A stretch of DNA of 24,000 nt from Planctomycetota bacterium (lineage in GTDB: Bacteria; Planctomycetota; MHYJ01; JACQXL01). Made by a program: the position numbers and the translations under genes. This document shows, in pieces, positions 1 to 21,104 of this stretch (positions within the stretch are counted from its first letter, which is position 1; each line of letters opens with the position of its first letter). The notes below the pieces were generated by a model that had not been told where the DNA came from, searched no databases, and saw only the letters and a list, made by a program, of their open reading frames with translations. The stretch is taken from the NCBI GenBank assembly GCA_043808305.1, contig JAZDFB010000016.1, positions 24,829 through 48,828 of the forward strand, given 5' to 3'.

Positions 1-725
1 TCCTCGTCAACATAATCCCGGCCATGTTTCCCGTGTAGGTAAGTATCGGCATTTACCGATTTGCACATATTTATTATCAGGTCTGTTGCTTTGCCTTCGA
101 CTTTACTCTGGCAGTTTGAGTGTAACGAATTATACTCTGGCAGTTTAAGCGGTAGCGAATTACTGCCAGGTATCCTCGGCTGTAATCCCGCTTCGGCGGG
201 ACTAACAGCCGATGGACTGCCAGGTATAGTCGGCTGCAACTTCAGAGCCCCAGAGGACCTCCCCTTGAGGGGGACAGGCAGCCGAACTATGAGCTCTGAC
301 GATTTGACTATGTCCGCCTTTATATGCATCTGCTCACAAACATAGCGGATGATGGCCTCATTAAGCGCGGACAGATATTGCCATTCCTTTTGATATAATT
401 GGCTGAAGAATTCGGAATATAGGGCAAAGTATGGGGCGGATTGGTAGTTGCGCAGAATACTCATCCAATGCTTCCGGCGCCAGTCCGTGGAATTATCTAT
501 AACCGTATCCTTGATAGACTGGAAATACTTACCCTTGGTAATTACCGGCACCGTAAGCCATATCCAGCCGGTGGCGGTGCGAATTCGGTTGCGGTTTATC
601 CAGCCGAAAGGGCCGCGCTTGACAAACTGGACGGTATCCACTATGATGAATTTATCGCAGCGCGCCGCCTTATGGAAAAATCCTATGTAAGGCAAATAAT
701 TTGGCTGGTGCCCTGCGGCTATCAT
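1..725 (-). CDS. WbqC-family protein; the 3' end lies beyond the left window edge. Carries an in-frame repeat-element insertion
   Basis: Manual minus-strand translation from the ATG at 725-723 stays open to position 1. It reads MIAAGHQPNYLPYIGFFHKAARCDKFIIVDTVQFVKRGPFGWINRNRIRTATGWIWLTVPVITKGKYFQSIKD...SSEL[about 64 aa P/S/G-rich insert]GKATDLIINMCKSVNADTYLHGKHGRDYVDE. The QPxYxPYxGFF / VDxVQF / WxNRNRI pattern is the one I recognise from WbqC (PF08889). The ORF is absent from the supplied track, probably because it has no stop inside the window. Confidence 0.7.
   Translation of the reverse strand, partial: MIAAGHQPNYLPYIGFFHKAARCDKFIIVDTVQFVKRGPFGWINRNRIRTATGWIWLTVPVITKGKYFQSIKDTVIDNSTDWRRKHWMSILRNYQSAPYFALYSEFFSQLYQKEWQYLSALNEAIIRYVCEQMHIKADIVKSSELIVRLPVPLKGRSSGALKLQPTIPGSPSAVSPAEAGLQPRIPGSNSLPLKLPEYNSLHSNCQSKVEGKATDLIINMCKSVNADTYLHGKHGRDYVDE
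100..290 (+). repeat. Composite nested-hairpin repeat (about 2.5 units of modules M1 and M2), copy A, inside the WbqC-family CDS
   Basis: M1 is tactctggcagttt(g/a)agYg(g)taRcgaattactgccaRgtat, with stem ctggcagt/actgccag: a partial copy at 104-131 and a full copy at 133-173. M2 has stem tcggctgt/acagccga at 176-213, and its loop holds a further hairpin tcccgc-ttcg-gcggga. A second, longer M2-like hairpin agtcggctgc...gcagccgaact lies at 228-288, with an inner cccc-ttga-gggg. Copies at 1044-1163 and 18038-18114 match it. Confidence 0.85.
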
Positions 726-737
726 TTATTAATCTGC

Positions 738-1550
738 TTATTGGAATATTGTTCTGGTTTTCCTGATGGACAAAGAACCGGCCGCGAAAGCCTCCTGCAA
801 ACCCAGGGCTTCAATAATCTCGTCCGGCCGGGCCGTGCCCTGATTGGTAACCTTTGTTGTCAGTATTATCTTGTTATCCTCTATTTTGGCATCTTTGATG
901 TATGGCCTGATATCCACGCTTTTCTGTCCTTCAGAACTTTTTCTTATTGCCATAATCTCTTTTTGCCCGAGTAAGCTGTTGATTTTTCCGTGATATTCGG
1001 CCGGGAAATCACCGCCGCCATTGCTTACCCCGACGGAATAGTCGGGATAACGTGGCAGTCCATCGGCTGTTCGAACGTAGTGAGTTACAGCCGAGGATAC
1101 CTGGCAGTAATTCGTTACACTCAAACTGCCAGAGTATAAACTCGCTTTACTCGAACTGCCACTAATGTGGTATTCCACGGAAAACTCTTTGGGGTTATCG
1201 GAAGAATGCTGCGGAGATACTTCGGTAATCCTGATTAACTGCCTGTTTTCATCTATCGAATCCGAAACAAAGAGGGAAGCCAATTGGGGATTAAGCCGGT
1301 TTTGGACTTCGGCAGGAGAAAGCCATTCGGCCAGATGCAGATAAATTACTTCATCGTCTGAAGGAATGCCTAGGCTAAGCGCTCCCAGAAAAGATATTCT
1401 TGGCCGCGGATTGAAGCCTTCGGAAAGCGCAATCGGAATGTCTGCCCGGCGGACAGCCCGTTCGATAAGCGTCATCAGTTCCCGATGAGGAAGAAACCTG
1501 GCCCTGCCGTCCTTGCTAAACCGCACCTGAAAGGTAAATTTCCTCATCAA
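738..1550 (-). CDS. DUF2344 / TIGR03936-like radical-SAM-linked protein, with an in-frame repeat-element insertion
   Basis: The N-terminus FQVRFSKDGRARFLPHRELMTLIERAVRRADIPIALSEGFNPRPRISFLGALSLGIPS matches the DUF2344 pattern (KFxKxGxxRFxSHLDxxRxxxRAxRRAxxPxxxSxGFNPxPKxSF). The internal stretch SGSSSKASLYSGSLSVTNYCQVSSAVTHYVRTADGLPRYPDYS is encoded by repeat copy B. Confidence 0.75.
   Translation of the reverse strand: MMRKFTFQVRFSKDGRARFLPHRELMTLIERAVRRADIPIALSEGFNPRPRISFLGALSLGIPSDDEVIYLHLAEWLSPAEVQNRLNPQLASLFVSDSIDENRQLIRITEVSPQHSSDNPKEFSVEYHISGSSSKASLYSGSLSVTNYCQVSSAVTHYVRTADGLPRYPDYSVGVSNGGGDFPAEYHGKINSLLGQKEIMAIRKSSEGQKSVDIRPYIKDAKIEDNKIILTTKVTNQGTARPDEIIEALGLQEAFAAGSLSIRKTRTIFQ
1044..1163 (-). 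repeat. Nested-hairpin repeat copy B (M1 + M2), about 120 bp, inside the DUF2344 CDS
   Basis: The reverse complement reads agtggcagttcgagtaaagcgagtttatactctggcagtttgagtgtaacgaattactgccaggtatcctcggctgtaactcactacgttcgaacagccgatggactgccacgttat. This is near-identical to copy A (133-220) and copy C across M1 and the M2 stems. Confidence 0.85.
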
Positions 1551-1559
1551 GATGATAAC

Positions 1560-3356
1560 TCATTTAGCGTCTTCTAATAATTTTTCTTGAGATTCAATCT
1601 TCTTAGCCATTTTAACTGAAGTCTCGCTGCCTGTCTTAATAATATGGGGGGTCAGGAAAATCAGAAGATGCTCAGTAGTGTGGGTATCGCTGCGATACTT
1701 GAAAAATATATTGAATATCGGAATATCTCCCAAATAAGGTATCTGTTCAACTGCTTTTGATACCCGGTCTCTTGAAAGACCGCCGATAATGGCCCCCTGG
1801 CCGCTTTCCAACAACAGGTACGCTACTATGGTTGATTGTTGCGTTCTGGGCAAGTCAATGTATTGCTCTCCTGTTCCGCTGTTTAGTTTATACCTGTCAA
1901 ACCCCGGGACCTCGGATGTGTTACCCGTAAGAATTTCCTGCTGCGGTATTATCGTTAACATCACCTGATTAGTATCCTTGATAACGTATGGTAACACCCA
2001 AAGTTGGAAACCCTGCTTGGCGGGTGATTTTGCCGCCTCGCCGATTGAATAAGCAATAGTGCCTGATTGTGAAGATGAAGCGGTGGTTTGGGCAAAACTG
2101 ACTGATTCCCCTACGAATACCGTTGCTTCCCGTCCGTGCAATGTCAGTAAAGTCGGTTCCTGTATAAGCCGGCTTTTTGTATCTTGTTTAAATAGCCTTA
2201 ACGTTGCGGTTATGTCATATTGAGTCAGATAAAGAGGATTATAAGAAGCGTAGGATCTGCCTCGGCCGAACGGAAGACTGCTGATAATTTGATTTGACCT
2301 TGGCGCAGTTAAGCCGCCCATTGTATCCGCAGCGCCTGTCGGGCGCGAGAAAGCGCCGATACCTTTGCCAAGCTGCCAGGCATAGTTTATGCCAAAATTT
2401 AAAAGGTCATCATTAGAAGTAACTATAAACTTCAGCTCAATTAAAACCTGAGGAGGAGCCATATCTAATTTATCAATAATCTTCTGGATTTCATCCAGGA
2501 CAGGCTTGGTATCTTTTACAATAATTGTATCGTTCTCGCGGTCATATTCCATGGTTCCGACCACTGCCCCACCCCTCTTTGTAAGCATATTCTTCAATAC
2601 TGTCAGCAAAGTAAAATCTCTGACCGGATCGGACGGACGCGGAGTTCCAACCGCGTATACCGTGCTGATTGTAGCCTTGAAATCTCCGGGCGGCTTAAGA
2701 TATTTAAGCTGAAAAATCCTGGTTTCCAGCTGTTCCTGTAATGCCTCGGTTTTGATAATCCTGACAACATTGTGTTTCTCCTGGACCATTGCATAACCCG
2801 TGGTTTTAATTATGTTATTAAGCGCTTCCATCCAGGGAATATCCTTAAACATCATCGTGACACTTCCACGGACATCGTCAGCAATAATAACGTTAATATT
2901 GGCCACTGCCGCAATGGCCCTGATCACCTCTTCCAACGGTTGATTCTTAAACGACATCGTGACAAGAGGCGGCTTGCTGACCCGATAAAGGGTGGGCGTG
3001 ATTTCTTCCAATACGCATTGGTTCTGGCGGACAATTTCTTCCAGGGCCAGCTTCCATTCCAAGTTCCGGAAAGTGACCGTTACAATATCATCCGAAGTTA
3101 TGGTAAAATCGGCGACGATGTTGACATTGGCAATTTCTGCGATAGCTTCTAAAGCGGCCCTTAGCGGTTTTTCACGCCACTCCACCGTTACCAATGCCAC
3201 CGGAGTTTGCTCTTTCTCCGGCTGTGAAGCTGCCGGCGCCTTGGCCGGCTCTTTTGACGTTGGTTCCGCAGCTACCGGCGGCGACTCGGCAAAAATCCCA
3301 CCAACCAGCAATAAAGATATCATTCCTACAAAAACAACTCTTAGAAAACATTTCAT
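1560..3356 (-). CDS. pilQ: Type IV pilus secretin PilQ
   Basis: Signal peptide MKCFLRVVFVGMISLLLVGGIFA. Three secretin-N/STN-like modules: LRAALEAIAEIANVNIV, LEEVIRAIAAVANINVII and WMEALNNIIKTTGY. The C-terminal secretin core ends ...VEQIPYLGDIPIFNIFFKYRSDTHTTEHLLIFLTPHII. The gene lies downstream of pilMNO. Confidence 0.85.
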   Translation of the reverse strand: MKCFLRVVFVGMISLLLVGGIFAESPPVAAEPTSKEPAKAPAASQPEKEQTPVALVTVEWREKPLRAALEAIAEIANVNIVADFTITSDDIVTVTFRNLEWKLALEEIVRQNQCVLEEITPTLYRVSKPPLVTMSFKNQPLEEVIRAIAAVANINVIIADDVRGSVTMMFKDIPWMEALNNIIKTTGYAMVQEKHNVVRIIKTEALQEQLETRIFQLKYLKPPGDFKATISTVYAVGTPRPSDPVRDFTLLTVLKNMLTKRGGAVVGTMEYDRENDTIIVKDTKPVLDEIQKIIDKLDMAPPQVLIELKFIVTSNDDLLNFGINYAWQLGKGIGAFSRPTGAADTMGGLTAPRSNQIISSLPFGRGRSYASYNPLYLTQYDITATLRLFKQDTKSRLIQEPTLLTLHGREATVFVGESVSFAQTTASSSQSGTIAYSIGEAAKSPAKQGFQLWVLPYVIKDTNQVMLTIIPQQEILTGNTSEVPGFDRYKLNSGTGEQYIDLPRTQQSTIVAYLLLESGQGAIIGGLSRDRVSKAVEQIPYLGDIPIFNIFFKYRSDTHTTEHLLIFLTPHIIKTGSETSVKMAKKIESQEKLLEDAK

Positions 3357-3367
3357 ATTTTTCTCCT

Positions 3368-5017
3368 TTATTTTTTATCGGCTATTTTGATTGTTAGAAT
3401 TTCACCCCTGTATAAAAATACAACTTCATTTGAAGATATTGATTTAATTGTTGTATCGGGATTTAATTTGGAACCCTCACCGTAAGCCACGTTATTAATT
3501 ATTGCGCTCGAAAAAGGCACATATTCAACATATACAACAGGCAGAGATATTTGATTGCCCATAAATGAGATTTTGACAGAGGGCAGCGTATTTTCCTGAG
3601 CTTTAAGATAATACACAATGCCTGTTATCTTGGGTGGGTTACGTAAGAACTCGATAAGAGTCTCAGCTCTGGCTAAAATTACCTCAACCTCTTTAATTAA
3701 ATCATCTATCTTAGCAACATAGTCTGTGTCTTCAACCTCTCTTTTTTGTCTGAGCAGTTTTATCTGAGAAAGTTTAGGATTTATCCCATCGTACTTCTTG
3801 AGGTCAAAAAACTTCTTGGCTTCATCTCTTAATGATACGGCTTGTTGATAAACAACCGCAGCGATTCCGGAAAATAACCTCTCAGCATCATCCCTGATAA
3901 TCATCATCTGATTTTTAGCCGCTTGAGGACCCATCTGCATCACTTTTGTGTATATATCAAGTATCCTGCCGTATGGTTCGGACATCGCATCGCCCCGTTC
4001 TTCTTCCGGAACCTGTTCGCATATTTTCTTCATCTGTTCCAGTTTTTCCTCGGCTTCTGCGAGCAACTTTTCAATGTCTTCTGGGGGGTTTGTAGAAGTG
4101 ATTTGCGTTGTTTTTCCCGGCTTTGTCAACTTCTGCCTGAAAGGATCATCTCTTCCACGTTTTTCAAATACAGATTTCTCTTCAGCAAGAGCATCTTCTT
4201 TTGTTGTTCTTGATATTATAATCTCACCAAGTTGGTTATTCAGTACAATATGCTCCGTAAGAACTATGCCATTTGCATCAATCACATATTCAATTTCTTT
4301 ATATAATGCTGTGGGGCTGGAAACAATAAGATTGCATCGATATTTTGTCTGGTCTTTCTCGCTCTCGGGCATTATTTTCTCTTTTACTATCAATAAAGCC
4401 GGGACAAAATAATTACTTGTATCTAGTAATTTAATAGAATAACTTTGGTTTATTTCAAGCCCTTGGCTAACTAGATATACGCCTATTTCCTGTCCGGTTA
4501 TATAAGGCTCTTCCGGGTTATTTTCAAATTCCTTGCCTTGCAGATCATTAAATACAGAAATACGGGTTTTTCCGCCTTCAGGAACTGCTTTATATTTCAA
4601 AACAACTTCTTTTGCCGAGGGCACGGTCGCTCTGACTTCCGATTTTATTAGCTTCATCCGGTTTTTTTGGCCTGGCGTTGGGGCTTGGATTTCAAATAAT
4701 ATTTCACCTATGATTCTGGTTCCGGCCGCTTCAATCATTTGCTTTTTCAGTTCCATTTCAGACTTTACTTTATATTGCTTATTTTGATCCGTGGATTGAG
4801 CCACTATTAATTCTATTGTCACAGCCTCATAACCCATTTTCCTTTCCTTGCTTCCGGCCAGCTTCCCTATAATAGCATACCATACTTCAGTTGTATTAGT
4901 CGGCGTGGCTGACTGTTCTCCTTCAGCAAAGATTAACGAAGAAATCGTTAAAATACAAAAAATCACTGCGGTTGTTATTTTGGTCACTTTAACTATATGT
5001 TCAAACCGATTTATCAT
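3368..5017 (-). CDS. Secreted 549-aa protein in the PilP position, with a possible PilP-like C-terminal beta domain
   Basis: ATG at 5017 and an N-terminal signal/TM segment ITTAVIFCILTISSLIFAEGE. The centre is a long charged, coiled-coil-like region (EKLLAEAEEKLEQMKKICEQVPEEE). The C-terminal ~90 aa (ITGIVYYL...SSAIINNVAYGEGSKLNPDTTIKSISSNEVVFLYRGEILTIKI) resembles the PilP/GspC-HR style beta domain. It sits exactly between pilO and pilQ. Confidence 0.6.
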   Translation of the reverse strand: MINRFEHIVKVTKITTAVIFCILTISSLIFAEGEQSATPTNTTEVWYAIIGKLAGSKERKMGYEAVTIELIVAQSTDQNKQYKVKSEMELKKQMIEAAGTRIIGEILFEIQAPTPGQKNRMKLIKSEVRATVPSAKEVVLKYKAVPEGGKTRISVFNDLQGKEFENNPEEPYITGQEIGVYLVSQGLEINQSYSIKLLDTSNYFVPALLIVKEKIMPESEKDQTKYRCNLIVSSPTALYKEIEYVIDANGIVLTEHIVLNNQLGEIIISRTTKEDALAEEKSVFEKRGRDDPFRQKLTKPGKTTQITSTNPPEDIEKLLAEAEEKLEQMKKICEQVPEEERGDAMSEPYGRILDIYTKVMQMGPQAAKNQMMIIRDDAERLFSGIAAVVYQQAVSLRDEAKKFFDLKKYDGINPKLSQIKLLRQKREVEDTDYVAKIDDLIKEVEVILARAETLIEFLRNPPKITGIVYYLKAQENTLPSVKISFMGNQISLPVVYVEYVPFSSAIINNVAYGEGSKLNPDTTIKSISSNEVVFLYRGEILTIKIADKK

Positions 5018-5024
5018 AAAAGAG

Positions 5025-5633
5025 TTATTTTTTTTCGGTATTCGGGGAAATATAAGTATAACTGGTTATTTTTACTTCTAATAAATGCCTTATCGCTGTT
5101 CCGGTTTTTTCCACTCCCATAAGATTTGTAGGCCTTAAAGAAATCTTGTCCACCTTAATAAACCTTTTATTTGTCTCCAGTAAATATATAAAATTAATGC
5201 AGTCGTAGAATTCGCCTTCGGCCCTCAGGCTATAAGATATCTTTTCAAATGTCGGTCCGCCACTGCCGGTCGGAGGACCTGATTTCTTAACTTCATCCGA
5301 CACATTTGCTCCGTGCACGACAAGCTTAGCTTCCTGCGCTATTTTAACCATTGAATTCAAGAAATCCTCATAAAGCTCATCTGTTTTGACAGGGAGCAAG
5401 TCCTTTATACCCTCTTTTTCTTTACGTAATACGTCAAGTCTCTTGTCCAACTCAATCATCTGGACTACTTTGGCTTCGGCTTCTTTTACCTGGACTTTAA
5501 CACTTTCTATTTCACCCTGTATCCTTATTAATTTATTATATTGGATAAAATACCCGTAAATAGCCAACCCAATAGCCATAATACCAGGTATAATAATGGT
5601 TAGAATAAGAAGTTTTCGTTCAGTAAGTCTCAT
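5025..5633 (-). CDS. pilO: Type IV pilus assembly protein PilO
   Basis: 202 aa with a short cytoplasmic N-terminus, one TM (LLILTIIIPGIMAIGLAIYGYFI), a coiled coil and a C-terminal globular domain. Its position between pilN and the PilP-position gene fits; the pilN stop is 1 nt upstream. Confidence 0.7.
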   Translation of the reverse strand: MRLTERKLLILTIIIPGIMAIGLAIYGYFIQYNKLIRIQGEIESVKVQVKEAEAKVVQMIELDKRLDVLRKEKEGIKDLLPVKTDELYEDFLNSMVKIAQEAKLVVHGANVSDEVKKSGPPTGSGGPTFEKISYSLRAEGEFYDCINFIYLLETNKRFIKVDKISLRPTNLMGVEKTGTAIRHLLEVKITSYTYISPNTEKK

Positions 5634-5634
5634 A

Positions 5635-6270
5635 TTAATTAGTCTTAGGGGCTGGTTTGCCCTTTCTTAACTCAATATCGAATTTCAGCGCAAATTCTTC
5701 AGTATAGTCCGGCATTGCCACTTTAACCAGGTTAAGAGCATCATCATAACCCAGATCAAATATTTTTCCCAATTCGGGATGATGCCTTAGTTTGATCCTG
5801 AATTCGGTCATTTTTTCAACGTTATCCGTAGCTGAAAGACAGCCAATGCTAAGGGTATAAGCAACCTGTCCTTTAGCTGAAGCTTTACTTCCACTTCCTT
5901 CTTCGCCCCTGAGAGAAGTAATCCAAATAGTAGGAGAGCCCGATATAAGATCGCATAAATAATCTACTGCTTCATACCATGAAAACGGCCTGGTCGATAT
6001 GACGGAATCAACTGCTTTCTTCCATTCTGAAAGATTTTTTTCTTCAGCCGCTTTCTTCTCAAAATCAATAGTTTGCTGTTGAAGTTTACCTAAATTATCC
6101 TGTTCACTATCCAGAACTTTGTCTTTGCCGCTTAATTTCGCCATCAAGACGGCGTTCCAGAAAACTAATAATAACAAAATTATTATTGCAGCGTTAAGCA
6201 GCAAAAACCGAGGAAGCGGTGTTCGTTCCTTATATCGTTTATCTTCCGGTAATAAATTAATTGTTATCAT
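5635..6270 (-). CDS. pilN: Type IV pilus assembly protein PilN
   Basis: The hallmark N-terminus MITINLLPEDKR is followed by a single TM (FLLLNAAIIILLLLVFWNAVLM). The gene follows pilM directly. Confidence 0.8.
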   Translation of the reverse strand: MITINLLPEDKRYKERTPLPRFLLLNAAIIILLLLVFWNAVLMAKLSGKDKVLDSEQDNLGKLQQQTIDFEKKAAEEKNLSEWKKAVDSVISTRPFSWYEAVDYLCDLISGSPTIWITSLRGEEGSGSKASAKGQVAYTLSIGCLSATDNVEKMTEFRIKLRHHPELGKIFDLGYDDALNLVKVAMPDYTEEFALKFDIELRKGKPAPKTN

Positions 6271-6276
6271 ATTGCG

Positions 6277-7335
6277 CTATTTCATTATTCGCGCGGCCAA
6301 ACCGGTTGCCACAGCAAAATTTGACGCTATTTTCTTAAAATCAACAGGGTCGACTCCATCTACCAATATCTCCAAAGATTCACAAGGATCCCACCTTATG
6401 GGCCTTTTTTCAAAGGTAACATCAATAGCTTCTTCCAAACCGATTATCTGAGAACCGCCGCCCGAAAGGTATATGTGCTCCACTTTCTTATCAGACTGGT
6501 GTTCAAAATAATCGAATGACAATCCTATTTCATGACAAAGCTCTTCTATGATTGAGGCAACAACTTCTTTAACTTCTTCTTGTTTCATGCCGGGGTCGCG
6601 TTTCAACGCCTCAGCTTGGGCGGGTTGCAGACCAATTCTTTTAACGAGAGCCTCGGTAAAATCATTACCGGCAATATGGATTTCTCTGGTAAAATATGAG
6701 TCCGTCCCATAAACAACATTAACATTTGTTTTGGTCGCACCGACATCAATCATGGCCGAAACTTTTTTGTCCGGACTGCTGGCTCCTGCCGTACTGAATT
6801 TCTGGTGTAGTTCAAAAGCATTCCCTATCGCAAAGCAATCCACATCAATAATCAAAGGCAACAAATGCACTTGTTCAATAAGAGCAATGTGCTCCTCTAT
6901 TGTCTGTTTCTTAACTGCCACCAGAAGCACTCTCATTTCCTTTTCTTCTTGATCCGGTTTCGGCTCTTCCAACGATGGCAATGGAGCACAATCAATCACG
7001 ACCTCTTCAACTTCAAACGGAATATATTTGCTGGCTTCGTATTTAATGGCACTTCTTAACTCCTCATCAGGCATCTTGGGCATGGTGATATATCTGACTA
7101 CTACTGACTTACCGGATACCGCTGTTACTACTTTCCTGGTATGCAGCCCGGATGTATCAAAAAATTCCTTAACCGCATCTTTAAGATCCTGCTGAGGCGC
7201 TAAATCTTTAATTCCATAACCGCTTATCACATAACTTCCGGACGCGGTCGGCGAAGGCGTCAGTTCTATGGCCTTTATAGCGCTCGTGCCGATATCCAAT
7301 CCGACTATTGACTTGGTTGTTTTAAGCTTAGCCAT
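6277..7335 (-). CDS. pilM: Type IV pilus assembly ATPase-fold protein PilM
   Basis: Actin-like ATPase motifs IVGLDIGTSAIKAIEL, IDVGATKTNV and IYLSGGGSQIIGL. 352 aa, typical for PilM. Confidence 0.85.
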   Translation of the reverse strand: MAKLKTTKSIVGLDIGTSAIKAIELTPSPTASGSYVISGYGIKDLAPQQDLKDAVKEFFDTSGLHTRKVVTAVSGKSVVVRYITMPKMPDEELRSAIKYEASKYIPFEVEEVVIDCAPLPSLEEPKPDQEEKEMRVLLVAVKKQTIEEHIALIEQVHLLPLIIDVDCFAIGNAFELHQKFSTAGASSPDKKVSAMIDVGATKTNVNVVYGTDSYFTREIHIAGNDFTEALVKRIGLQPAQAEALKRDPGMKQEEVKEVVASIIEELCHEIGLSFDYFEHQSDKKVEHIYLSGGGSQIIGLEEAIDVTFEKRPIRWDPCESLEILVDGVDPVDFKKIASNFAVATGLAARIMK

Positions 7336-7351
7336 AATAAACTAAAAGAAT

Positions 7352-8128
7352 TTAAATCCTTTTCTTGCCTTTACCTTTTTCCTGGCTTTTCATGTAGAAA
7401 TCATTGGCCTCTTTATAGGAGTCTATATCTCCGATATCAAACCAATGATTCTTCATTACATACCCAAAAACATCCCGTTTCTTATGCAACCACTGAATAT
7501 AATATCCGGGCGCATCGGGATTAAGATGCCCGTCCAGATATTCCTTAAATAATCCTAAATCCCTTGCCGGGAATACATATAAACAAATCGCTATTAATAT
7601 GCTTTTAGGATCCGGCGGTTTTTCCTCAAAATCGATTACTTTATCGCTCTTATCTAAAGTCACGACACTATACTGGCTTATTAATTTCCTGTCAACATCT
7701 TTCATATTTTTCAGGGCGATAGTCGGACCGTGTTTTTTATAGTAGCTGATTATCTCGTCAATATTATCGCCGAAAAGATTATCGCCGGCAATAACCAGCA
7801 AATCGCCCTTTATTCCGCATTTATCCACTACAAATTGTATATCTCCTATCGCACCCAGCTTGTTATCATTCGTGGTCGTCTCGTCGTCAACCAAGGTTAT
7901 TTTCTTCTTGAACCGTTGCTGCACCTCAGGCAACCAGTTCTGATAACTCTCATAAAACCGCCGGTTTACCACTATAAAAACCTCGCTGACATCCTTGGCC
8001 GATGACAACAAATCCAATGTCCATTCTATTACTGATTTCCCGGCAATGTTTAATAACGGCTTGGGAGTGTTTTTAGTCAGCGGATAAAGCCTGACACCAT
8101 AGCCAGCGCCCAGAATTAATGCTTTCAC
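7352..8128 (-). CDS. Sugar-phosphate nucleotidyltransferase (NTP_transferase family), GTG start
   Basis: Signature ALILGAGYGVRLYPLTKNTPKPLL (GxGxRLxPLTxxxPKPL). A GTG start at 8128 is preceded by gaggggaaaataag. Confidence 0.8.
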   Translation of the reverse strand: MKALILGAGYGVRLYPLTKNTPKPLLNIAGKSVIEWTLDLLSSAKDVSEVFIVVNRRFYESYQNWLPEVQQRFKKKITLVDDETTTNDNKLGAIGDIQFVVDKCGIKGDLLVIAGDNLFGDNIDEIISYYKKHGPTIALKNMKDVDRKLISQYSVVTLDKSDKVIDFEEKPPDPKSILIAICLYVFPARDLGLFKEYLDGHLNPDAPGYYIQWLHKKRDVFGYVMKNHWFDIGDIDSYKEANDFYMKSQEKGKGKKRI

Positions 8129-8166
8129 CTTATTTTCCCCTCTTTTATTTAATATTTAATCCATTT

Positions 8167-8194
8167 ATGCTAACTCTATAAAAACTAATGTCAA
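8167..8194 (-). promoter_or_regulatory. Candidate sigma70-type promoter for the nucleotidyltransferase-pil gene string
   Basis: The minus strand reads TTGACA (8194-8189), N16, TAGCAT (8172-8167), about 40 nt upstream of the GTG start. The -10 element matches consensus at only 4/6 positions. Confidence 0.25.
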
Positions 8195-8241
8195 TAAAAA
8201 TATATCTTGACCTTCGTAAATTTGATATTATCTTATATTTA

Positions 8242-9414
8242 ATGAAATATCTAGTTTATATCCAGACTTTCGGATGCCAAATGAATAAACTCGATTCCGA
8301 ACTTATCGCCAATGTCCTGGTTGAAAAAGGGTATAAACTGGCGGATAGTGAGGAATCAGCTGATATAATACTTTTAAATGCCTGCTCTGTCCGGGCCCAT
8401 GCTGAAGAACGCGTCTATAACCGCCTGAGTCTGCTCAGCCGTCTGAAGAAATCAAAACCTAACCTGATTCTCGGTCTGGTCGGCTGCATGGCCCAGAAGG
8501 ATAAAGAACTTGCCTTTAAGCGTCTTCCTCAACTTAACCTGGTCTGTGGCCCGCACCGTTATAAAACCCTTGTCAACTTGATTAATGAGGCACAAACTAA
8601 GAAGAAGCATATAAATTGCACCGATCAAGCCGGCCTGCTCTCCGATGAAAACCCGGAGCGGACAAACCAGGCCGTTCCGCCGGATAAGCACTCTTACATC
8701 CAGGCGATGCGCGGCTGCGATAACTACTGTAGCTACTGCATCGTGCCCTATGTCCGGGGCAAAGAAGTCAGCCGCCCTATCCGTGATATCGTAACTGAAA
8801 CCAACTCATTGGTATCCCGCGGCATCAACGCCATAACACTTCTCGGTCAGAACATAACCGCATACGGAGTAAAGAGGAATCCCGCCGGATGGCGGGATGG
8901 ACACAATATGACTTCGGGTAAATCACAAATCAGTTTATCTATCCTGCTCCGCGAATTACATTCTATAGATAACCTAAACCATATAGGCTTTATCACCGGC
9001 CATCCGGCGTTTGTCACCGTCCAGCTTCTGGAAACTATGGCAACCCTGCCCAAAATCCGGCGCGAACTCCATATGCCGGCGCAGTCCGGCTCGGACCGAA
9101 TACTGAAACTTATGAATCGCGGTTACACCGCCCAAGAATATCTTAATATCACAAAAGAGGCTCACCGCTTGATGCCGGATATCAAAATAATCAGCGACTT
9201 TATTGTCGGATTCCCTGCCGAGACCGATGACGACTTCAGTGCTACTGTTGACCTTGTTAAAACGGCGGAATTCTCTAAGATATTCGTTTTTAAATATTCC
9301 TCCCGCCCCGGCACTGCCGCGGCTAAGATGCCCGACGACGTTCCGCTGTCCGTGAAAAAGGAACGGAATAATATACTTCTTGATGTTCAAAAGAAAATAC
9401 ATAACTTACGATGA
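8242..9414 (+). CDS. miaB: MiaB/RimO-family radical SAM methylthiotransferase with no C-terminal TRAM domain
   Basis: Starting at the ATG at 8242, MKYLVYIQTFGCQMNKLDSE is the canonical family N-terminus. The UPF0004 cysteines are present (FGCQMN, NACSVR, VGCMAQ), as is the radical SAM motif CDNYCSYCIVP. The protein ends ...KKERNNILLDVQKKIHNLR, where the TRAM domain normally begins. The track start at 8188 adds 18 non-homologous residues. Confidence 0.85.
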   Translation: MKYLVYIQTFGCQMNKLDSELIANVLVEKGYKLADSEESADIILLNACSVRAHAEERVYNRLSLLSRLKKSKPNLILGLVGCMAQKDKELAFKRLPQLNLVCGPHRYKTLVNLINEAQTKKKHINCTDQAGLLSDENPERTNQAVPPDKHSYIQAMRGCDNYCSYCIVPYVRGKEVSRPIRDIVTETNSLVSRGINAITLLGQNITAYGVKRNPAGWRDGHNMTSGKSQISLSILLRELHSIDNLNHIGFITGHPAFVTVQLLETMATLPKIRRELHMPAQSGSDRILKLMNRGYTAQEYLNITKEAHRLMPDIKIISDFIVGFPAETDDDFSATVDLVKTAEFSKIFVFKYSSRPGTAAAKMPDDVPLSVKKERNNILLDVQKKIHNLR

Positions 9415-10601
9415 ATATAATGAATGATATTAAGTATATGTCCCTGGCGATGAAACTTGCCCGGCTGGGCAAAGGCAAGGTAGAACCTAATCCCATGGTC
9501 GGAGCGGTGATAGTCAAGAACGATAAAATCATCGGCAAAGGCTATCACGAGTATTTCGGCGGACCGCATGCCGAAATAAACGCTATCAACTCCGTCCGAA
9601 ATCCGCGCCTCCTCAAAGGCACAACCCTGTATATTACTTTAGAACCCTGTGTTCACTTCGGCAAAACACCGCCTTGCGCGCCGGCTGTGATTCAAAGCGG
9701 CATTAAACGGGTAGTAATTGCCACCCAAGACCCTAACCCGCTGGTAAGCGGCAAAGGCATCCAGATGCTCAAGACCGCAGGTGTTAAAACTGAATTAATT
9801 AAAAACAGTATTACCAAGGAGATAATAAATATGAACTCACCATTCTTTTGGCGCTACGGCGGACACAACTCAAAACTTCATAAGACCGGGTTGCCTTATG
9901 TCATAGCCAAATGGGCAATGACCGCGGACGGAAAAATCGCTACTATTACCGGAGATTCCAAATGGATATCATCACCGCAGTCGCGCCAGTTCGTCCAGAA
10001 ACTGCGCGCTAAGGTCAATGGCACCCTGGTCGGCATCAACACCGTGCTCAAGGATAATCCTTTGCTTATTCCGCACGGGTTAAAAATAAATTCTAAATTA
10101 AGTGCGCCGTCTCGTATAATCGTGGATAGTAATGCCCGTATCCCGCTGAGTTCGCAAATAGTCAATACCGCCAACACCATACCAACCTATATCGCCGTTA
10201 CATCATCGGCTCCGGCCAAGAAATTGCAAGCCCTTACCAGCAAAGGCTGCATGATAATTAAAACCGCCGCTCCGATGCTCACGAGCGGAGCGCCCCGTAT
10301 CCGAAGGCATCGGGACGGGCGAAAGGCCGTTAATATCAAATCCCTGTTAAAACAACTTGCAGGCCTCGGCATAAACAGCATCCTGATAGAAGGCGGCGGC
10401 GCGATTCACGGCAGCGTCTTTGCGGCCGGCTTAGTGGACGAGGTTTATATCTTTATCGCACCTAAAATAATAGGCGGCAAAGACGCAAAAAACCCCGTCG
10501 AAGGCGCCGGCATAAAACTAATGCACAACGCCTTAGCGCTCAAAAATATGACCGTCAAACGCATCGGCCCGGATGTGCTGATAAATGGATTAATCAAATA
10601 A
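9411..10601 (+). CDS. ribD: Bifunctional riboflavin biosynthesis deaminase/reductase RibD
   Basis: Deaminase zinc motifs GGPHAEINAI and TLEPCVHFGKTPPCAPAV, plus a reductase domain (KWAMTADGKIA, ILIEGGGAIHGS). An ATGA start/stop overlap joins it to the miaB-like gene. Confidence 0.9.
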   Translation: MNIMNDIKYMSLAMKLARLGKGKVEPNPMVGAVIVKNDKIIGKGYHEYFGGPHAEINAINSVRNPRLLKGTTLYITLEPCVHFGKTPPCAPAVIQSGIKRVVIATQDPNPLVSGKGIQMLKTAGVKTELIKNSITKEIINMNSPFFWRYGGHNSKLHKTGLPYVIAKWAMTADGKIATITGDSKWISSPQSRQFVQKLRAKVNGTLVGINTVLKDNPLLIPHGLKINSKLSAPSRIIVDSNARIPLSSQIVNTANTIPTYIAVTSSAPAKKLQALTSKGCMIIKTAAPMLTSGAPRIRRHRDGRKAVNIKSLLKQLAGLGINSILIEGGGAIHGSVFAAGLVDEVYIFIAPKIIGGKDAKNPVEGAGIKLMHNALALKNMTVKRIGPDVLINGLIK

Positions 10602-14539: not shown

Positions 14540-15417
14540 TTTACGATACCATCATCATCGGGGCCGGGCCGGCCGGAATAGCCGCGGCCATCCAGCTGAA
14601 ACGAAACGGGCTCAACGCCCTGCTTATGGAAAAAAATCAGTTGGGCGGACTGATGCTCAACGCCAACCTGATAGAAAATTATCCGGGATTCGATAAAGGA
14701 ATAACTGGAGCCGGCCTGGCACACAGATTCCAGCAACATCTGAAACAGCTGGGCATCAAACCGATGTTCCGAACTGTCCGGTCAATAAAGCAGACAACCC
14801 AAGGATTTGCGGTCGCCACCGACAAAGGTATTTACAACTGCCGCTCGCTGGTCATCGCCAGCGGCACCAAACCAAAACCACTGGGCATTGCCGGCGAAAC
14901 AGAAGCCGTACTCAGTAAAAAACTGCTCTACGAAATCAAGGATATACCGGACAATAACCGGAGTAAATTATTCACTGTCATCGGCGGCGGCGAGGCGGCA
15001 TTCGACTACGCCCTGAACCTGTCCCACCGGGACAAATCCGTTAATATCGTCTTCCGCAACGGCCAACCGCGGGCGATGGCCCTGCTGGTAACCCGTGTAA
15101 AGGACAATAAGAATATAAAAATATGGCCAAACATCAAGCCAACCCGGATATTCATTACCAATAATAAAGTCGTACTATGCGGCAATCGGGACAAACAAAA
15201 TGTGGCGCTGTACAGCGATTGCATCCTGGCCGCCATCGGGCGAATGCCCTGCCTGGATTTCCTGCCGGCCCGATCCGAAAAAATCCTCAAAGCTAAAGGA
15301 CTCTTCATGGCCGGAGACGTCCGGCGCGGCAATCACCGCCAGACAGTCATCGCCGCCGGCGAGGGACTGCTGGCCGCCATGCAAGTTATTGACTACATAA
15401 AGGAATTGAAATGCTGA
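14536..15417 (+). CDS. NAD(P)/FAD-dependent oxidoreductase, thioredoxin-reductase-like fold but without the CxxC redox motif
   Basis: Dinucleotide motifs YDTIIIGAGPAGIAAA and FTVIGGGEAAFDYA, and a C-terminal FMAGDV. I see no CxxC between the two Rossmann motifs. ATGA overlap with the upstream gene. Confidence 0.8.
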   Translation: MIYDTIIIGAGPAGIAAAIQLKRNGLNALLMEKNQLGGLMLNANLIENYPGFDKGITGAGLAHRFQQHLKQLGIKPMFRTVRSIKQTTQGFAVATDKGIYNCRSLVIASGTKPKPLGIAGETEAVLSKKLLYEIKDIPDNNRSKLFTVIGGGEAAFDYALNLSHRDKSVNIVFRNGQPRAMALLVTRVKDNKNIKIWPNIKPTRIFITNNKVVLCGNRDKQNVALYSDCILAAIGRMPCLDFLPARSEKILKAKGLFMAGDVRRGNHRQTVIAAGEGLLAAMQVIDYIKELKC

Positions 15418-16352
15418 AAGTAATCTCAGAACAGGGACGGCCGGAACTGGCCACGGTTTATGTCGGGCGGATGCGCGACGGCTCGGACAAGCACCTGGTT
15501 GAGTTCGTGGAATCGGTCCAGCCGCCCATCCCGCGCCAGAGCAAGTGGGTCATCATCGTCTCCTCGCAGTTCGGATGCCCCATAGGCTGCCTGATGTGCG
15601 ATGCCGGCCGCAAGTTCTCCGGAAACCTGACCGCGGACGAAATCCTGGCCCAGATAGATTACCTGATTACCAAATATTATCCGACCGGCGCGGTGCCGGT
15701 GCCCAAGTTCAAGATACAGTTCGCCCGGATGGGCGAGCCGGCCCTCAACCCGGCCGTGCTCGAGGTGCTGGAGCAACTGCCCAAACGCTATAAAGCCGAA
15801 GGGCTGATGCCCTGCATCGCCACCATCGCGCCGCAGGGATGCGATGGATTCTTCGAGCGGCTTATCGACATCAAGAACCGATTGTACAGCGGTGACAGGT
15901 TCCAACTGCAGTTTTCCATAAACACCACCGACCCGGCAAAGCGTCAGGAGCTTATGCCCTACCCCAAATGGACTCTGGCCCAAATCGCCGGATACGGCAG
16001 CCGTTTCCACCGGCCGGGCGACCGTAAAATGACGCTCAACTTCGCCGTAGCCGAAGGCTACCCGGTTGACGCCGATATTATCCGCCGCCATTTCAGCCCG
16101 GAGCAATTTCTGATCAAGATAACTCCGCTCAACCCCACCCGGCAGGTAGCCAGCAATAAGCTGAAAACATATATCGATCCGAACGGCGCCGGACAGGACA
16201 ACGAGCTGGTCGCCCGGTTCACACAACTGGGCTATGACGCCATCCTGAGCATCGGCGAGCAGGAAGAAAACCAGATTGGCAGCAATTGCGGCGAGTTCGT
16301 GAGCGTGTTGCAGGACAAGTCAGCGCTGGTTGATACCATCGGATTATTATGA
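15411..16352 (+). CDS. RlmN/Cfr-like radical SAM enzyme lacking the RlmN N-terminal domain
   Basis: VIIVSSQFGCPIGCLMCDAG (compare RlmN LCVSSQVGCALECKFC), ARMGEPALN (compare MGMGEPLLN), KITPLNP (compare NLIPWNP), and the C-terminal IGSNCGEF (compare DAACGQL). It overlaps the upstream gene by 7 nt (ATGCTGA). Confidence 0.8.
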   Translation: MLKVISEQGRPELATVYVGRMRDGSDKHLVEFVESVQPPIPRQSKWVIIVSSQFGCPIGCLMCDAGRKFSGNLTADEILAQIDYLITKYYPTGAVPVPKFKIQFARMGEPALNPAVLEVLEQLPKRYKAEGLMPCIATIAPQGCDGFFERLIDIKNRLYSGDRFQLQFSINTTDPAKRQELMPYPKWTLAQIAGYGSRFHRPGDRKMTLNFAVAEGYPVDADIIRRHFSPEQFLIKITPLNPTRQVASNKLKTYIDPNGAGQDNELVARFTQLGYDAILSIGEQEENQIGSNCGEFVSVLQDKSALVDTIGLL

Positions 16353-16873
16353 TTGACCAAGGAGCTCGTAAAAAAGCAGCCGTGCTCATTAAGGATTTCC
16401 GAGATGGCTTGATTGATAACGATGAATTTGTTCGGGATTACCCTTCAACCAAATCTAAAGACACAGCATTACATGCTATTTACACACATCTTTGGTTTTA
16501 TTATGCTGATATCAGTAAACATCGCCTTACAGAAAAACATTCATTAACAGAAGAGGGGAAAGCAGTATTTAATCGATGTATTGCTTTTTTGGAATCGGAC
16601 AAAGAATATGATTATCCTATTAAGGATTTTATATCATTAACCGCCGCTGTTACGCGTCCTTTCATTTCTTTCATTATTAGCTTCTCTTTGGTCATGTGTC
16701 TTATTAAAATTTTTAATGTCAGTCGTATGTGGGCACTTATCATCGGATTTTTGTGTTGGATAATGGTATTAATATTTCGTTTCTTATTAAAAAGACGCAA
16801 CAAGAAATTTTTCATTAATTGGGAAAAATGGCCTTTCCATCCAGATAAAGAAACATCCGGAAATAATAATTAA
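16349..16873 (+). CDS. AT-rich hypothetical membrane protein with a soluble N-terminal ~95 aa and 2 predicted TM helices
   Basis: ATGA overlap with the radical SAM gene. Hydrophobic segments RPFISFIISFSLVMCLIKIF and WALIIGFLCWIMVLIFRFLL. I recognise no family. Confidence 0.55.
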   Translation: MIDQGARKKAAVLIKDFRDGLIDNDEFVRDYPSTKSKDTALHAIYTHLWFYYADISKHRLTEKHSLTEEGKAVFNRCIAFLESDKEYDYPIKDFISLTAAVTRPFISFIISFSLVMCLIKIFNVSRMWALIIGFLCWIMVLIFRFLLKRRNKKFFINWEKWPFHPDKETSGNNN

Positions 16874-16945: not shown

Positions 16946-17935
16946 CTATTCTTTAGATTTGAGCGTCTGCAGTTTGCGTGACAATGCCCTTATCAATTCC
17001 GGCAATCCCGTCTTCTTTACGGCCGAGATGGCCAAAAACTTCTTGGGCAGTTTAGCCCGGTATTTCCTGATATTGGCCTCGGCGCCGGGCAGGTCTATCT
17101 TGTTCAACACCAGTATCTCCGGCTTCCTGGCCAGCGTCGGGCTGTATTCCTTTAGCTCGCCGCGTATGGTCTTGTAAGCCGCGTCCAGCGGAGTGGTCGC
17201 GTCGATGATGTGTAGGACTATCCGGGTGCGCTCGATATGCTTTAGGAACTTGTCGCCCAGTCCCTTGCCCAGATGAGCGCCTTCTATCAGGCCGGGCAGG
17301 TCGGCCACCACGAAGGTGCGGTCTTCGGTCACTGCCACCACGCCCAGCGACGGTTCAAGCGTGGTAAAAGGATAATCGGCAATCTTGGGCCGGGCATCGG
17401 AAACACGGGAAAGCACCGTCGATTTCCCGGCATTGGGCAGGCCGACCAGCCCGACATCGGCGATGAGTTTCAGCTCCAGGTAAAGCCAGCGCTCTTCGCC
17501 CGGTATGCCGGTCTCGGCGTTGCGCGGCGTCTGGTTTATCGAGGTGGCAAAGACCTTGTTGCCCCGTCCGCCCCGTCCGCCTTTGACCACGATGAACTCG
17601 TCTTTGGCGTCTTTGATGTCCTTGATGATATTCCTGTTGGACCGGTCTCGGACAACCGTGCCCAGGGGCACTTCGACAACCCGGTCCGAGCCGTTCTTGC
17701 CGATGCAGTTATTGGTCCCGCCCGGCTGTCCGTTCTGGGCCAGGATGCGCTCGTGGTGCGCCAGGTGGTAGAGCGTGTTCATATGCGGGTTGGCCCGGAT
17801 GATGACATCGCCGCCCCAACCGCCGTTGCCGCCGTCCGGCCCGCCTTTGGGTATGTATTTCTCGCGCCAGAAACTGACTATGCCCGTGCCGCCGTCGCCG
17901 GCCTTGACAAATATTTCTACTTCGTCTTTAAACAT
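16946..17935 (-). CDS. obg: GTPase Obg/CgtA
   Basis: Obg-fold N-terminus MFKDEVEIFVKAGDGGTGIVSFWREKYIPKGGPDGGNGGWGGDV. G motifs GLPNAGKST, DLPGLIEGA and NKID. Confidence 0.95.
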   Translation of the reverse strand: MFKDEVEIFVKAGDGGTGIVSFWREKYIPKGGPDGGNGGWGGDVIIRANPHMNTLYHLAHHERILAQNGQPGGTNNCIGKNGSDRVVEVPLGTVVRDRSNRNIIKDIKDAKDEFIVVKGGRGGRGNKVFATSINQTPRNAETGIPGEERWLYLELKLIADVGLVGLPNAGKSTVLSRVSDARPKIADYPFTTLEPSLGVVAVTEDRTFVVADLPGLIEGAHLGKGLGDKFLKHIERTRIVLHIIDATTPLDAAYKTIRGELKEYSPTLARKPEILVLNKIDLPGAEANIRKYRAKLPKKFLAISAVKKTGLPELIRALSRKLQTLKSKE

Positions 17936-18037
17936 ATAATTTAATAGTACGCAGATCTTCGCTGATTTGCGCAGATAGGCACTAATAATTTATTTAATAG
18001 GTTATCTTAATAATTACAAGTTAATCCTGCAAATCTG

Positions 18038-18114
18038 TACTCTGGCAGTTTGAGCGTAGCGAATTACTGCCAAGTATAGTCGGCTATAACTCACTTCATT
18101 CTAACAGCCGAGCT
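18038..18114 (+). repeat. Nested-hairpin repeat copy C: a minimal M1 + M2 unit, intergenic
   Basis: tactctggcagtttgagcgtagcgaattactgccaagtat followed by agtcggctataactcacttcattctaacagccgagct. It lies between the obg start and the stop of the Wza-like gene. Confidence 0.85.
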
Positions 18115-18134
18115 ACGTTCATCTGCGTCCCTTA

Positions 18135-18848: not shown

Positions 18849-18870
18849 CTTATGTTTTCCTTGCAGTATA

Positions 18871-18891
18871 GGAAAGTATAAAATACTTTCC
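18871..18891. promoter_or_regulatory. Perfect 9-bp-arm palindrome upstream of the Wza-like gene
   Basis: ggaaagtat-aaa-atactttcc, about 25 nt upstream of the ATG at 18848. It could be an operator-like site or a 5'-UTR hairpin. Confidence 0.3.
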
Positions 18892-19015
18892 GATACTGCC
18901 TGTGGGGGTCTGGGGGATTGCAGCCAATCCCACAGGGGGTGACGCCATAAGGACGTCCTGTGGACGCCCGATGGCAACCAGAGGGGCGATAGCCCCTATG
19001 GAAGCCCCCCAAATT

Positions 19016-19039
19016 ATCCCGCTTTAGCGGGATTTTCTT
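19016..19039 (+). terminator. Terminator-like hairpin (atcccgc-ttta-gcgggat followed by ttttc) in the divergent intergenic region
   Basis: A 7-bp GC-rich stem, a tetraloop and a short T run, 70 nt upstream of tilS. No annotated plus-strand gene precedes it. Confidence 0.3.
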
Positions 19040-19108
19040 GATTACAGGGATTATATATTATATCGTCTTTAAAGAAACCAAGCAAGAATAATTCAGACTG
19101 CGCGACAA

Positions 19109-20116: not shown

Positions 20117-20126
20117 ACCGCTGAGG

Positions 20127-20241: not shown

Positions 20242-20270
20242 GTTGTATCTAGGACAAAGGAACGAATCAG

Positions 20271-21092: not shown

Positions 21093-21104
21093 TATTAGTG
21101 GCTA

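Follow-up and report, generated by a model that had tools for sequence, protein, structure and literature searches.

The question raised by this stretch of DNA (24,000 nt of contig JAZDFB010000016.1 from a Planctomycetota bacterium, assembly GCA_043808305.1; hereafter the window, meaning the whole stretch) is how a gene for a WbqC-family protein comes to contain, in frame, a composite of nested palindromic repeats. Such a composite had been proposed from the letters of the sequence alone (hereafter the sequence-only reading), as an insert of about 190 bp and about 64 residues separating two conserved blocks of a minus-strand open reading frame (ORF). The composite, here named element A, is probably a copy of a dispersed and modular family of mobile palindromes, similar to repetitive extragenic palindromic (REP) sequences, bacterial interspersed mosaic elements (BIMEs) and REP doublets forming hairpins (REPINs), of which frame-compatible insertions persist in coding loops. 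It is a new instance of a known phenomenon, exemplified by the Rickettsia palindromic elements (RPEs) and by intragenic REPs, and not a new kind of element. The gene and its insert are located as follows.

1–725, minus strand: WbqC-family gene, with the 5' part within the window and the 3' end beyond it (PF08889 match; exact match to protein P0001).
104–289, plus strand (WbqC reads the reverse complement): composite element A, 186 nt or 62 codons, a single clean gap with respect to contigs L001 and L012.

The minus-strand ORF at 3–725 gives a 241-residue translation, identical to that of the sequence-only reading, which matches the Pfam profile PF08889 with an E-value of 5e-54 and 183.8 bits (gathering cut-off 21.3). 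The match is broken by the insert into two stretches, the first of which stops at residue 146 (profile position 137). The full-length protein is P0001 (291 residues, encoded on a contig of 48,828 bp; NCBI MFH1226659.1, 'MAG: WbqC family protein [Planctomycetota bacterium]', where MAG stands for metagenome-assembled genome; exact match), and the homologues are about 230 residues long in nearly all of the best 120 of 1,270. When P0001 was compared residue by residue with 11 homologues (12-sequence alignment A1), they aligned on either side of residues ~147–208, which were opposite gaps only. The same residues have no counterpart in 71 of the 71 homologues of a larger, 72-sequence alignment (A6); homologous residues in other WbqC proteins, named beforehand as the finding that would speak against an insertion, are therefore not there. 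A protein as close as P0002, 91% identical to P0001, is without the insert.

At the DNA level, two independent empty sites (L001, ENA ERZ27247960, and L012, JGI Ga0265292_1000240) both align to the window with one clean gap of 186 nt, or 62 codons. The original estimate of about 190 bp with the frame open thus stands, while the number of added residues is 62 and not about 64. It should be noted that MAFFT puts the gap at 106–291 rather than at 104–289. All the stems that had been named are present (ctggcagt/actgccag, tcggctgt/acagccga, tcccgc-ttcg-gcggga and cccc-ttga-gggg), and the 206-nt region folds beyond chance, with z-scores of −6.8 (DNA) and −7.9 (RNA) and 0 of 200 shuffles as stable. 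The structure prediction proposed as a check was also informative: with A6 as the input alignment, AlphaFold2 gave a model of P0001 (predicted template modelling score, pTM, 0.80; predicted local distance difference test, pLDDT, above 90 in the core) in which residues 147–208 have a pLDDT of 33–61 and no secondary structure, and lie between strand 138–141 and helix 213–223. On this model, the insert is predicted to be a disordered loop between secondary-structure elements. A search by sequence found no PDB chain matching WbqC.

The neighbouring gene carries a second composite, element B. The sequence-only reading had listed a recurrence of the element family at 1044–1163, and did not notice that this copy is also in frame.

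738–1547, minus strand: DUF2344 / TIGR03936 radical-SAM-associated gene, 269 residues (P0121 / MFH1226660.1, exact match).
1027–1165, minus strand: composite element B, 138 nt or 46 codons, in frame, in the M1-to-M2 direction defined below; boundaries ±1 nt.

The DUF2344 protein matches Pfam PF10105 with an E-value of 9e-37, and its residues 8–237 (230 residues) span just 169 profile positions (3–171). The 46 residues encoded by element B (GSSSKASLYSGSLSVTNYCQVSSAVTHYVRTADGLPRYPDYSVGVS) are missing from nine DUF2344 homologues, including P0122 (223 residues, 'Candidatus Brocadiia bacterium'), and the corresponding site is empty in L012, the contig that carries P0122. The boundary of this insert was set by hand and by a 10-kb pairwise alignment, and its position is a region of variable length among the homologues. 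Element B has a fold z-score of −5.4 and an nhmmer E-value of 3e-25, and elements A and B are read in opposite orientations by their respective host genes. Contig L012 is syntenic with window positions 1–10600, where the synteny stops, at 78–88% nucleotide identity; across these 10.6 kb, no indel exceeds 50 nt apart from elements A (186 nt) and B (138 nt), both multiples of three. The WbqC and DUF2344 copies are lineage-specific insertions.

The repeated unit was defined from ten copies, found at the three window loci and in contigs L002, L004, L005, L007, L008 and L009; L013 and L014 were added later. It is about 78 nt long and consists of two hairpins of 8–11 bp, M1 and M2, that is TAC-t-CTGGCAGT-[16–17-nt loop TTGAGYG(N)TARCGAATT]-ACTGCCAG-GTA followed by TAG-TCGGCTGT-[16-nt loop AACTCACTACGTTCKA]-ACAGCCGA-a-CTA. 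M2 is a diverged reverse complement of M1, with 12 of the 16 loop positions matching, and the unit profile matches its own opposite strand (nhmmer, E 1e-6), which makes the unit an inverted doublet comparable to a REPIN or to a BIME dimer. Because its two hairpins are inverted copies of each other, it can be folded either as two hairpins or as a single long hairpin. The two modules alternate through 6-nt linkers, GTATAG or GTATCC; the linker TAG pairs with the 3' CTA, and in one subfamily both switch together, to TCC and GGA. The same loop is carried on other stems as well (GTGACACT, GTGGCAGT and GTCGCTGT), each of them with its exact complement. In an alignment of 13 single modules, which takes in the hairpin at 23394–23446 of the window, 93.9% of the cells are paired, compared with 76% in shuffles, and changes on both sides are seen at 8 of the 11 stem pairs, a number reached by 0 of 500 shuffles; slid controls gave 20–60% pairing. 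The loop is conserved, the stems vary by compensatory change, and the hairpin is under constraint.

Within the window, the junction motif ACTGCCARGTATNNTCGGCTNNAA occurs four times against 0.00 expected, and the copies have nhmmer E-values from 1e-19 to 1e-25. The recurrences suspected at 1044–1163 and at 18038–18114 are therefore real; the latter is an intergenic copy of the bare unit.

18038–18114, plus strand: element C, a canonical 77-nt M1-M2 unit, intergenic, between the Obg GTPase and polysaccharide-export genes (nhmmer E 6e-25).

Element A is more elaborate, and consists of the following parts.

104–132, plus strand: outer M1, 5' stem and loop, TAC-t-CTGGCAGT-TTGAGTGTAACGAATT-A; the 3' stem ACTGCCAG is at 216–223.
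133–216, plus strand: inner canonical M1-M2 unit, TCC/GGA variant (nhmmer E 1e-19).
224–289, plus strand: second M2 module, GTA-TAG-TCGGCTGC ... GCAGCCGA-a-CTA.

The inner unit begins directly after the ...GAATTA of the outer M1, whose segments at 104–132 and 216–223 are paired around it in the DNA fold. A mini-hairpin (TCCCGC-TTCG-GCGGGA, 186–201) is nested in turn in the M2 loop of the inner unit, and the loop of the second M2 is widened by more small hairpins, cccc-ttga-gggg among them, so that the suggestion of elements nested inside one another proved correct. Element B shares with element A the plan of an outer hairpin enclosing an inner canonical unit, in this case an outer GTGGCAGT/ACTGCCAC hairpin, and a CCCGAC-GGAATA-GTCGGG mini-hairpin comes after. 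In L004, unrelated hairpins occupy the same M1 point as the inner unit of element A, and L008 has a hairpin within the M1 loop. Mini-hairpins of the form TCCC(N2-5)-loop-(N2-5)GGGA are a second module type, with five perfect examples in the window against 0.21 expected. In each of A, B, L009 and L014, at least three module types are joined. Composites such as the 186-nt element A result from the insertion of units, and of unrelated TCCC...GGGA mini-hairpins, into one another. The module order of element A is also found in P0186, in P0187, in residues 7–69 of P0184 (65% amino acid identity over all 64 residues) and in the DNA of L014. Since it recurs in P0184 and L014, element A probably entered WbqC as a ready-made composite.

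P0184 is a 497-residue protein in which the composite is annotated as the N-terminus. This is probably a 5' extension resulting from an over-long gene call; by analogy with what has been reported for RPE-1, it could be a real N-terminal decoration.

The sequence-only reading would have been undermined if the modules had no further copies, and copies do exist beyond the window: a DNA pattern located true copies in six other public contigs (L002, L004, L005, L007, L008 and L009), and those of L013 and L014 were located through translated peptides. An exact scan for the junction motif in 185,579 GTDB species-representative genomes returned one copy, in a groundwater Planctomycetota MAG (JACQXL01). 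The same kind of scan in metagenomes (JGI/ENA contigs) gave eight matches, five of which are true copies, including Hainich groundwater samples and Ga0265292; the matches in L003, L006 and L010 are due to chance. At the protein level, the element translated in three frames (as a chimeric query) and compared with 5.8 billion proteins retrieved only the two window proteins and P0183. The 64-residue insert compared with 1.84 billion representatives gave six matches, four of them real (P0184, P0186, P0187 and P0189) and two to unrelated repeat proteins (P0185 and P0188). The family seems confined to a narrow and poorly sampled lineage; its hosts are uncultured Planctomycetota that have 'Candidatus Brocadiia' MAGs as relatives.

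Two of the external copies lie inside genes. In L007 (Ga0315284_10378169), a unit is in frame in a complete ispG/GcpE gene (PF04551, E 1e-130), and accounts for 28 extra residues between PDB 3noy positions 146 and 159, extra with respect to 4mwa as well. The frame used is that of the WbqC copy (LIVRLPVKLQPTIPGSNSLTLKLP), and the ORF is intact over the whole GcpE profile. In L013 (Ga0394676_81281), a 79-nt unit at 904–982 shifts the frame of a flavodoxin/FMN-reductase-like gene (606–1407), which is called as two overlapping ORFs; either this gene is a pseudogene or its frame has to be corrected.

Single copies of the unit are stop-free in just 0–3 of the six frames. Because of this, and because the L013 copy splits its gene, insertion is not intrinsically frame-preserving. 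The host ORF is nevertheless kept by three of the four intragenic copies (62 residues added to WbqC, 46 to DUF2344 and 28 to ispG), each against a rough chance of ~0.1 per event that an insert has a length divisible by three and no stop in the reading frame concerned, which points to a selective filter. All the invariant WbqC residues downstream of the insert are retained in alignment A1, and NCBI annotates both WbqC and DUF2344 as intact proteins. Compared with L012, dN/dS (the ratio of non-synonymous to synonymous substitution rates) is 0.036 upstream and 0.088 downstream of the insert in WbqC, and 0.086 and 0.19, respectively, in DUF2344. A mechanism consistent with these data would be that the elements move as non-autonomous mobile DNA, inserting irrespective of frame; that purifying selection would clear the disruptive insertions from needed genes; and that the survivors would be the insertions that keep the frame, whose translation would add disordered decorations to loops, a situation also known from the RPEs of Rickettsia and from intragenic REPs. 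Tryptic peptides predicted from the insert sequences include SSGALK, LQPTIPGSPSAVSPAEAGLQPR and IPGSNSLPLK.

The insertion sites give some indication as to how the elements may move. Written in the M1-to-M2 orientation, the empty sites read GACGT^TAAGTTC for WbqC (L001 and L012) and CCGTA^TAAGTAA for DUF2344 (L012), and the filled sites continue as ^TAAGTTT in ispG (L007) and as ^TAAAGTT in the flavodoxin-like gene (L013). A TAAGT flank corresponds, on the opposite strand, to an element end abutting ...TTA^. The nested copies and those of L005, L008 and L009 have TTA^ at the M1 end, and a TTA flank is present in nine of 13 copies. Target duplication is not evident at the two verified sites (WbqC and DUF2344), and no clean version of it, whether of TA, of 3 nt or of 5 nt, fits all copies. 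The sites and the recognition of a hairpin resemble the chemistry of HUH/Y1 enzymes (IS200/IS605, or the REP-associated tyrosine transposases, RAYTs) more than DDE transposition. Movement would then proceed via an intermediate in the form of a single-stranded hairpin, on which an enzyme of the HUH/Y1 type (a RAYT or IS200/IS605-like) would act. This is a weaker inference, which we propose tentatively and regard as possible rather than probable, on account of the conserved loop with covarying stems, the TTA-abutting ends in 9/13 copies, the lack of duplication at the two verified sites and the self-nesting at one position.

All four intragenic copies directly adjoin TAAGT or TAAAGT (at window positions 290 and 1027, at ~1266 in L007 and at ~903 in L013), and the flank AGTTC, present in WbqC and L013, is the complement of GAACT at the end of the element, so that the terminal hairpin is lengthened. 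As seen at these four sites, the TAAGT/TAAAGT flank may be a target-recognition rule.

Several observations weigh against the interpretation given above, some of them concerning selection on the inserts and others concerning mobility. Only four intragenic copies are known, so the figure of three in frame is a small statistic. Elements A and B share stretches of 29–34 nt at 97–100% identity; the insertions may therefore be young, selection having had little time to act, and the low dN/dS largely reflects the history that preceded them. The WbqC and DUF2344 inserts are presumed to be translated on the strength of ORF continuity and conservation. As for mobility, four intergenic copies are without the TTA/TAAGT flank, and the insert boundaries slide by 1–2 nt, such that a TA duplication fits three copies if one substitution is allowed. 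A Pfam search of 20 window ORFs and of 10 ORFs beside the L002, L004 and L009 copies revealed no transposase, RAYT or insertion sequence (IS). Finally, the unpaired GTAG/CGTC tag of the two described REP superfamilies is absent, the TAC/TAG triplets being paired.

Other origins have to be considered in the light of the same data. The elements might be classical MITEs (miniature transposable elements with inverted repeats), derived by deletion from a DDE insertion sequence (such as one of the IS630/Tc1-mariner type) and mobilized in trans, with terminal inverted repeats (TIRs) and a TA duplication. The unit ends TACTCTGGCAG / TAGTTCGGCTG are indeed imperfect inverted repeats (7/11), canonical units start and finish with TA, the size of 77–80 nt is typical (PMC10969869), and the L013 and L007 copies can be written as TA-[element]-TA, as can the WbqC copy as TA-[element]-TG over an empty site with a single TA. 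However, the TAC...GTA and TAG...CTA triplets covary with their internal partners (TAG/CTA changing to TCC/GGA), and therefore belong to the hairpins and not to a duplicated target; moreover, the second side is without TA in four intergenic copies (TT, TT, CG and CT), nested copies and the DUF2344 site have no duplication, and neither the window nor the fetched loci yielded a parent insertion sequence. We therefore regard a MITE origin as unlikely. It is quite unlikely that WbqC and DUF2344 are recent pseudogenes, inactivated by the insertions, with frames open by chance and youth. The 97–100% identity of A and B over 29–34 nt does suggest a late arrival, a 62-residue disordered insert could be harmful, and the L013 copy shows that these elements do break genes; yet three of four intragenic copies are multiples of three and stop-free, against the ~0.1 chance per event, the ispG ORF is intact across the whole GcpE profile, the invariant WbqC residues downstream are all kept, and the inserts fall in a loop (WbqC) or in a length-variable region (DUF2344).

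The repeats could also be regulatory elements of the host acting at the RNA or DNA level (terminators, mRNA stabilizers or protein-binding sites), spread by recombination or gene conversion, with the intragenic copies as by-products. Such roles have been credited to REPs (PMC3733652) and would agree with the conserved loop and covarying stems, with the intergenic copies between genes of the same direction and with the terminator-like score of the hairpin at 23424–23449. On the other hand, the clean presence/absence at orthologous coding sites, the nesting at a fixed point and the recurrence of whole composites at unrelated loci indicate insertion events; in addition, terminator-like matches in 17500–24000 are no commoner than in shuffles, and Rfam gave none. 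An origin of this kind appears very unlikely to us, even though a regulatory role is compatible with mobility, and a REP can be both. A general role as intrinsic terminators was discarded, one related hairpin fitting and the counts being those expected from shuffles. Finally, a metagenome assembler might have spliced a repeat into the genes, the source being a short-read MAG and the repeats short and multi-copy. The two flanks of each insert, however, are consecutive parts of one gene in one frame, and a misjoin at a repeat would instead connect different loci; an artefact cannot rejoin two gene halves in frame. Intragenic copies are found, besides, in independent assemblies (ispG and the flavodoxin-like gene). 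The assembly artefact that had been named as a way for the claim to fail is thus scarcely credible. The anatomy of the element fits neither an intein nor a CRISPR array nor a tandem repeat, and these were rejected.

The reading as a dispersed family of REP/BIME/REPIN-like mobile palindromes agrees with several precedents, and the earlier assertion that RPEs are the only one is wrong. REPs are 20–40 bp stem-loops, often arranged as inverted dimers whose two halves can join in a single long hairpin (Di Nocera et al. 2013, PMC3733652). According to the same study, heterodimers, with partners that differ in stem or loop, occur as well as clusters; in several species, they may be 'entirely located within ORFs', where dimers encode 20–30 residues and clusters 43–82. 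The highest count of intragenic repeats was found in Opitutus terrae for GTAG repeats (a member of the Verrucomicrobia and, like Planctomycetes, of the Planctomycetes-Verrucomicrobia-Chlamydiae superphylum) and in R. conorii for CGTC repeats, and tagged REPs were reported in Planctomycetes (PMC3733652). In-frame fusions of intragenic MITEs were described as 'not unusual' in a 2024 review, where the MITEs carrying ORFs include intragenic ERIC, Coxiella QMITE1 and Anabaena MITEs (PMC10969869).

Compared with RPE-1 to RPE-10 (Ogata et al. 2000, 2002), as far as these are described in the papers that cite them (PMC10969869, PMC3733652), the family is similar in that dispersed palindromes lie in frame in unrelated housekeeping genes, lengthen the proteins by tens of residues at places where the fold allows it and are intergenic too. 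The host is different: an environmental Planctomycetota MAG with groundwater relatives here, an obligate intracellular alphaproteobacterium there. The unit of ~78 nt, with two short hairpins and heavy nesting, also contrasts with the ~150 bp of RPE-1, and the planctomycete copies, open in 0–3/6 frames, encode no conserved peptide apparently selected as such. To judge from the reading frames, we would thus have a palindromic repeat in frame in functional protein-coding genes, as RPEs are defined, and we do not claim membership of the RPE-1 to RPE-10 families.

The resemblance to REP, BIME and REPIN sequences (PMC3733652; Bertels and Rainey 2011, PMC3116915) consists in stem-loops of 30–40 nt as close inverted dimers, foldable singly or as a long hairpin, in heterodimers with differing stems, in mosaic clusters and in a mostly intergenic location with some copies wholly within ORFs. 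In particular, the REP-like modules are inverted over a 6-nt spacer with one long hairpin possible, as in REPIN doublets, and form mosaic clusters of alternating orientation with defined linkers, as in BIMEs. Unlike the REPs, the planctomycete family is without the unpaired GTAG/CGTC tag (GTAG being at only 2/6 M2 ends and CGTC at none), its loop is conserved and its stems variable, and its abundance is known for one 24-kb window. With bacterial MITEs (PMC10969869) it has in common that it is small, non-coding, structured and multi-copy and that it fuses in frame with host ORFs or disrupts them, but there are no clear TIRs beyond the hairpin stems, no consistent target duplication and no identified parent IS. 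With IS200/IS605 and their non-autonomous derivatives (HUH/Y1; PMC6006769), it would share hairpin recognition, insertion beside a short specific sequence (here TTA) and the lack of duplication at the WbqC and DUF2344 sites; a TnpA gene was not observed, and this likeness is purely inferential, from 13 copies. We consider it doubtful that the family is an undescribed class of hairpin-guided elements, neither RAYT/GTAG-REP nor IS-derived, recognized by a conserved 16-nt loop on interchangeable stems, specific for TTA(/TAAGT) and leaving no duplication, which would routinely build translated disordered loops into housekeeping enzymes of environmental Planctomycetota; the hairpin-containing in-frame inserts of four genes within 10.6 kb of the window, relative to L012, would fit such a class. 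On a still more remote version of this idea, copies that break the frame (the 79-nt unit of L013, for instance) might be skipped or removed at the RNA or translation level.

These results add an uncultured Planctomycetota lineage from the environment to the cases of 'selfish DNA inside protein-coding genes', of which those in Rickettsia are the best known. The case is unusually clean, as filled and empty orthologous sites are available for two adjacent genes, and the frame-breaking counter-example of L013 puts selection, not frame-aware insertion, behind the pattern. The covariation of the stems around a conserved loop, together with the recurring TTA flank, provides handles for finding the moving enzyme. 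In addition, repeat-derived inserts lengthen the annotated proteins of MAGs and break up their Pfam matches, and should therefore be recognized as such.

In the remainder of the window, further hairpins related to the family or to its mini-hairpin modules are present, so that the 24 kb contain three strong loci, two related clusters and five mini-hairpins.

8880–8897, plus strand: TCCCGCC-GGAT-GGCGGGA mini-hairpin, in the MiaB-like radical SAM gene 8188–9414.
19017–19032, plus strand: TCCCGC-TTTA-GCGGGA mini-hairpin, intergenic, the module as nested in element A; another copy at 20171–20186.
21160–21240, plus strand: degenerate related cluster, intergenic, with M1-like loop CAGTTGGAGCGTAGCGACTTA and more small hairpins (fold z only −1.9).
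23394–23446, plus strand: related hairpin with a different compensated stem, GTCGCTGT/ACAGCGAC, intergenic (fold z −6.9).

The last of these is followed by a TCCCGAC-TATTTC-GTCGGGA mini-hairpin and a T-run, forming the terminator-like pattern at 23424–23449. Rfam, used at its gathering thresholds, had no match anywhere in the window. Four ORFs of 174–366 residues, including 21244–22344 (minus strand), 22451–23272 (minus strand) and 15411–16873 (plus strand), are without a Pfam match.

Directly upstream of DUF2344 and WbqC, on the minus strand (1560–7335), lies an operon for type IV pilus or type II secretion system (T2SS)-like assembly, comprising PilM, two small PilN/O-like proteins, a T2SSM_b-like protein, a 549-residue protein with a weak T2SSB match and a PilQ/GspD secretin; its gene order is kept in L012. 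The description of the host as a non-rickettsial, pilus-bearing bacterium is thus borne out, in so far as PilM, a PilQ-type secretin and a T2SSM-like protein are encoded by a member of the Planctomycetota.

Smaller differences from L012 are found further along the syntenic stretch. The MiaB-like gene (8188–9414, plus strand) has a 16-codon in-frame insert at 8869–8929 with respect to its L012 orthologue (VKRNPAGWRDGHNMTSGK), and its hairpin at 8880–8897 is of the module type nested in element A; the polarity of this 16-residue gap, insertion or deletion, is taken from the L012 comparison alone. In ribD (9411–10601, plus strand), there are in-frame inserts of 48 nt (10268–10315) and 24 nt (9849–9872), the former with two small hairpins (CGCTCCG...CGGAGCG and CCCCG...CGGGA) and a fold z of only −1.8. 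Counting these two, four genes in the 10.6-kb stretch carry in-frame inserts relative to L012.

In L009 (Ga0265292_1000029, 401 kb), positions 1000–1340 hold a mosaic of ~350 nt with at least six hairpin modules (TTATCCC...GGG, TAGTGACAC... and M1-M2). It lies downstream of an ORF with a zinc ribbon, and short direct repeats (ccaataccttaa...) come next. In glyS, at the same locus, 581 residues correspond to 535 profile positions, and this gene may likewise contain an insert.

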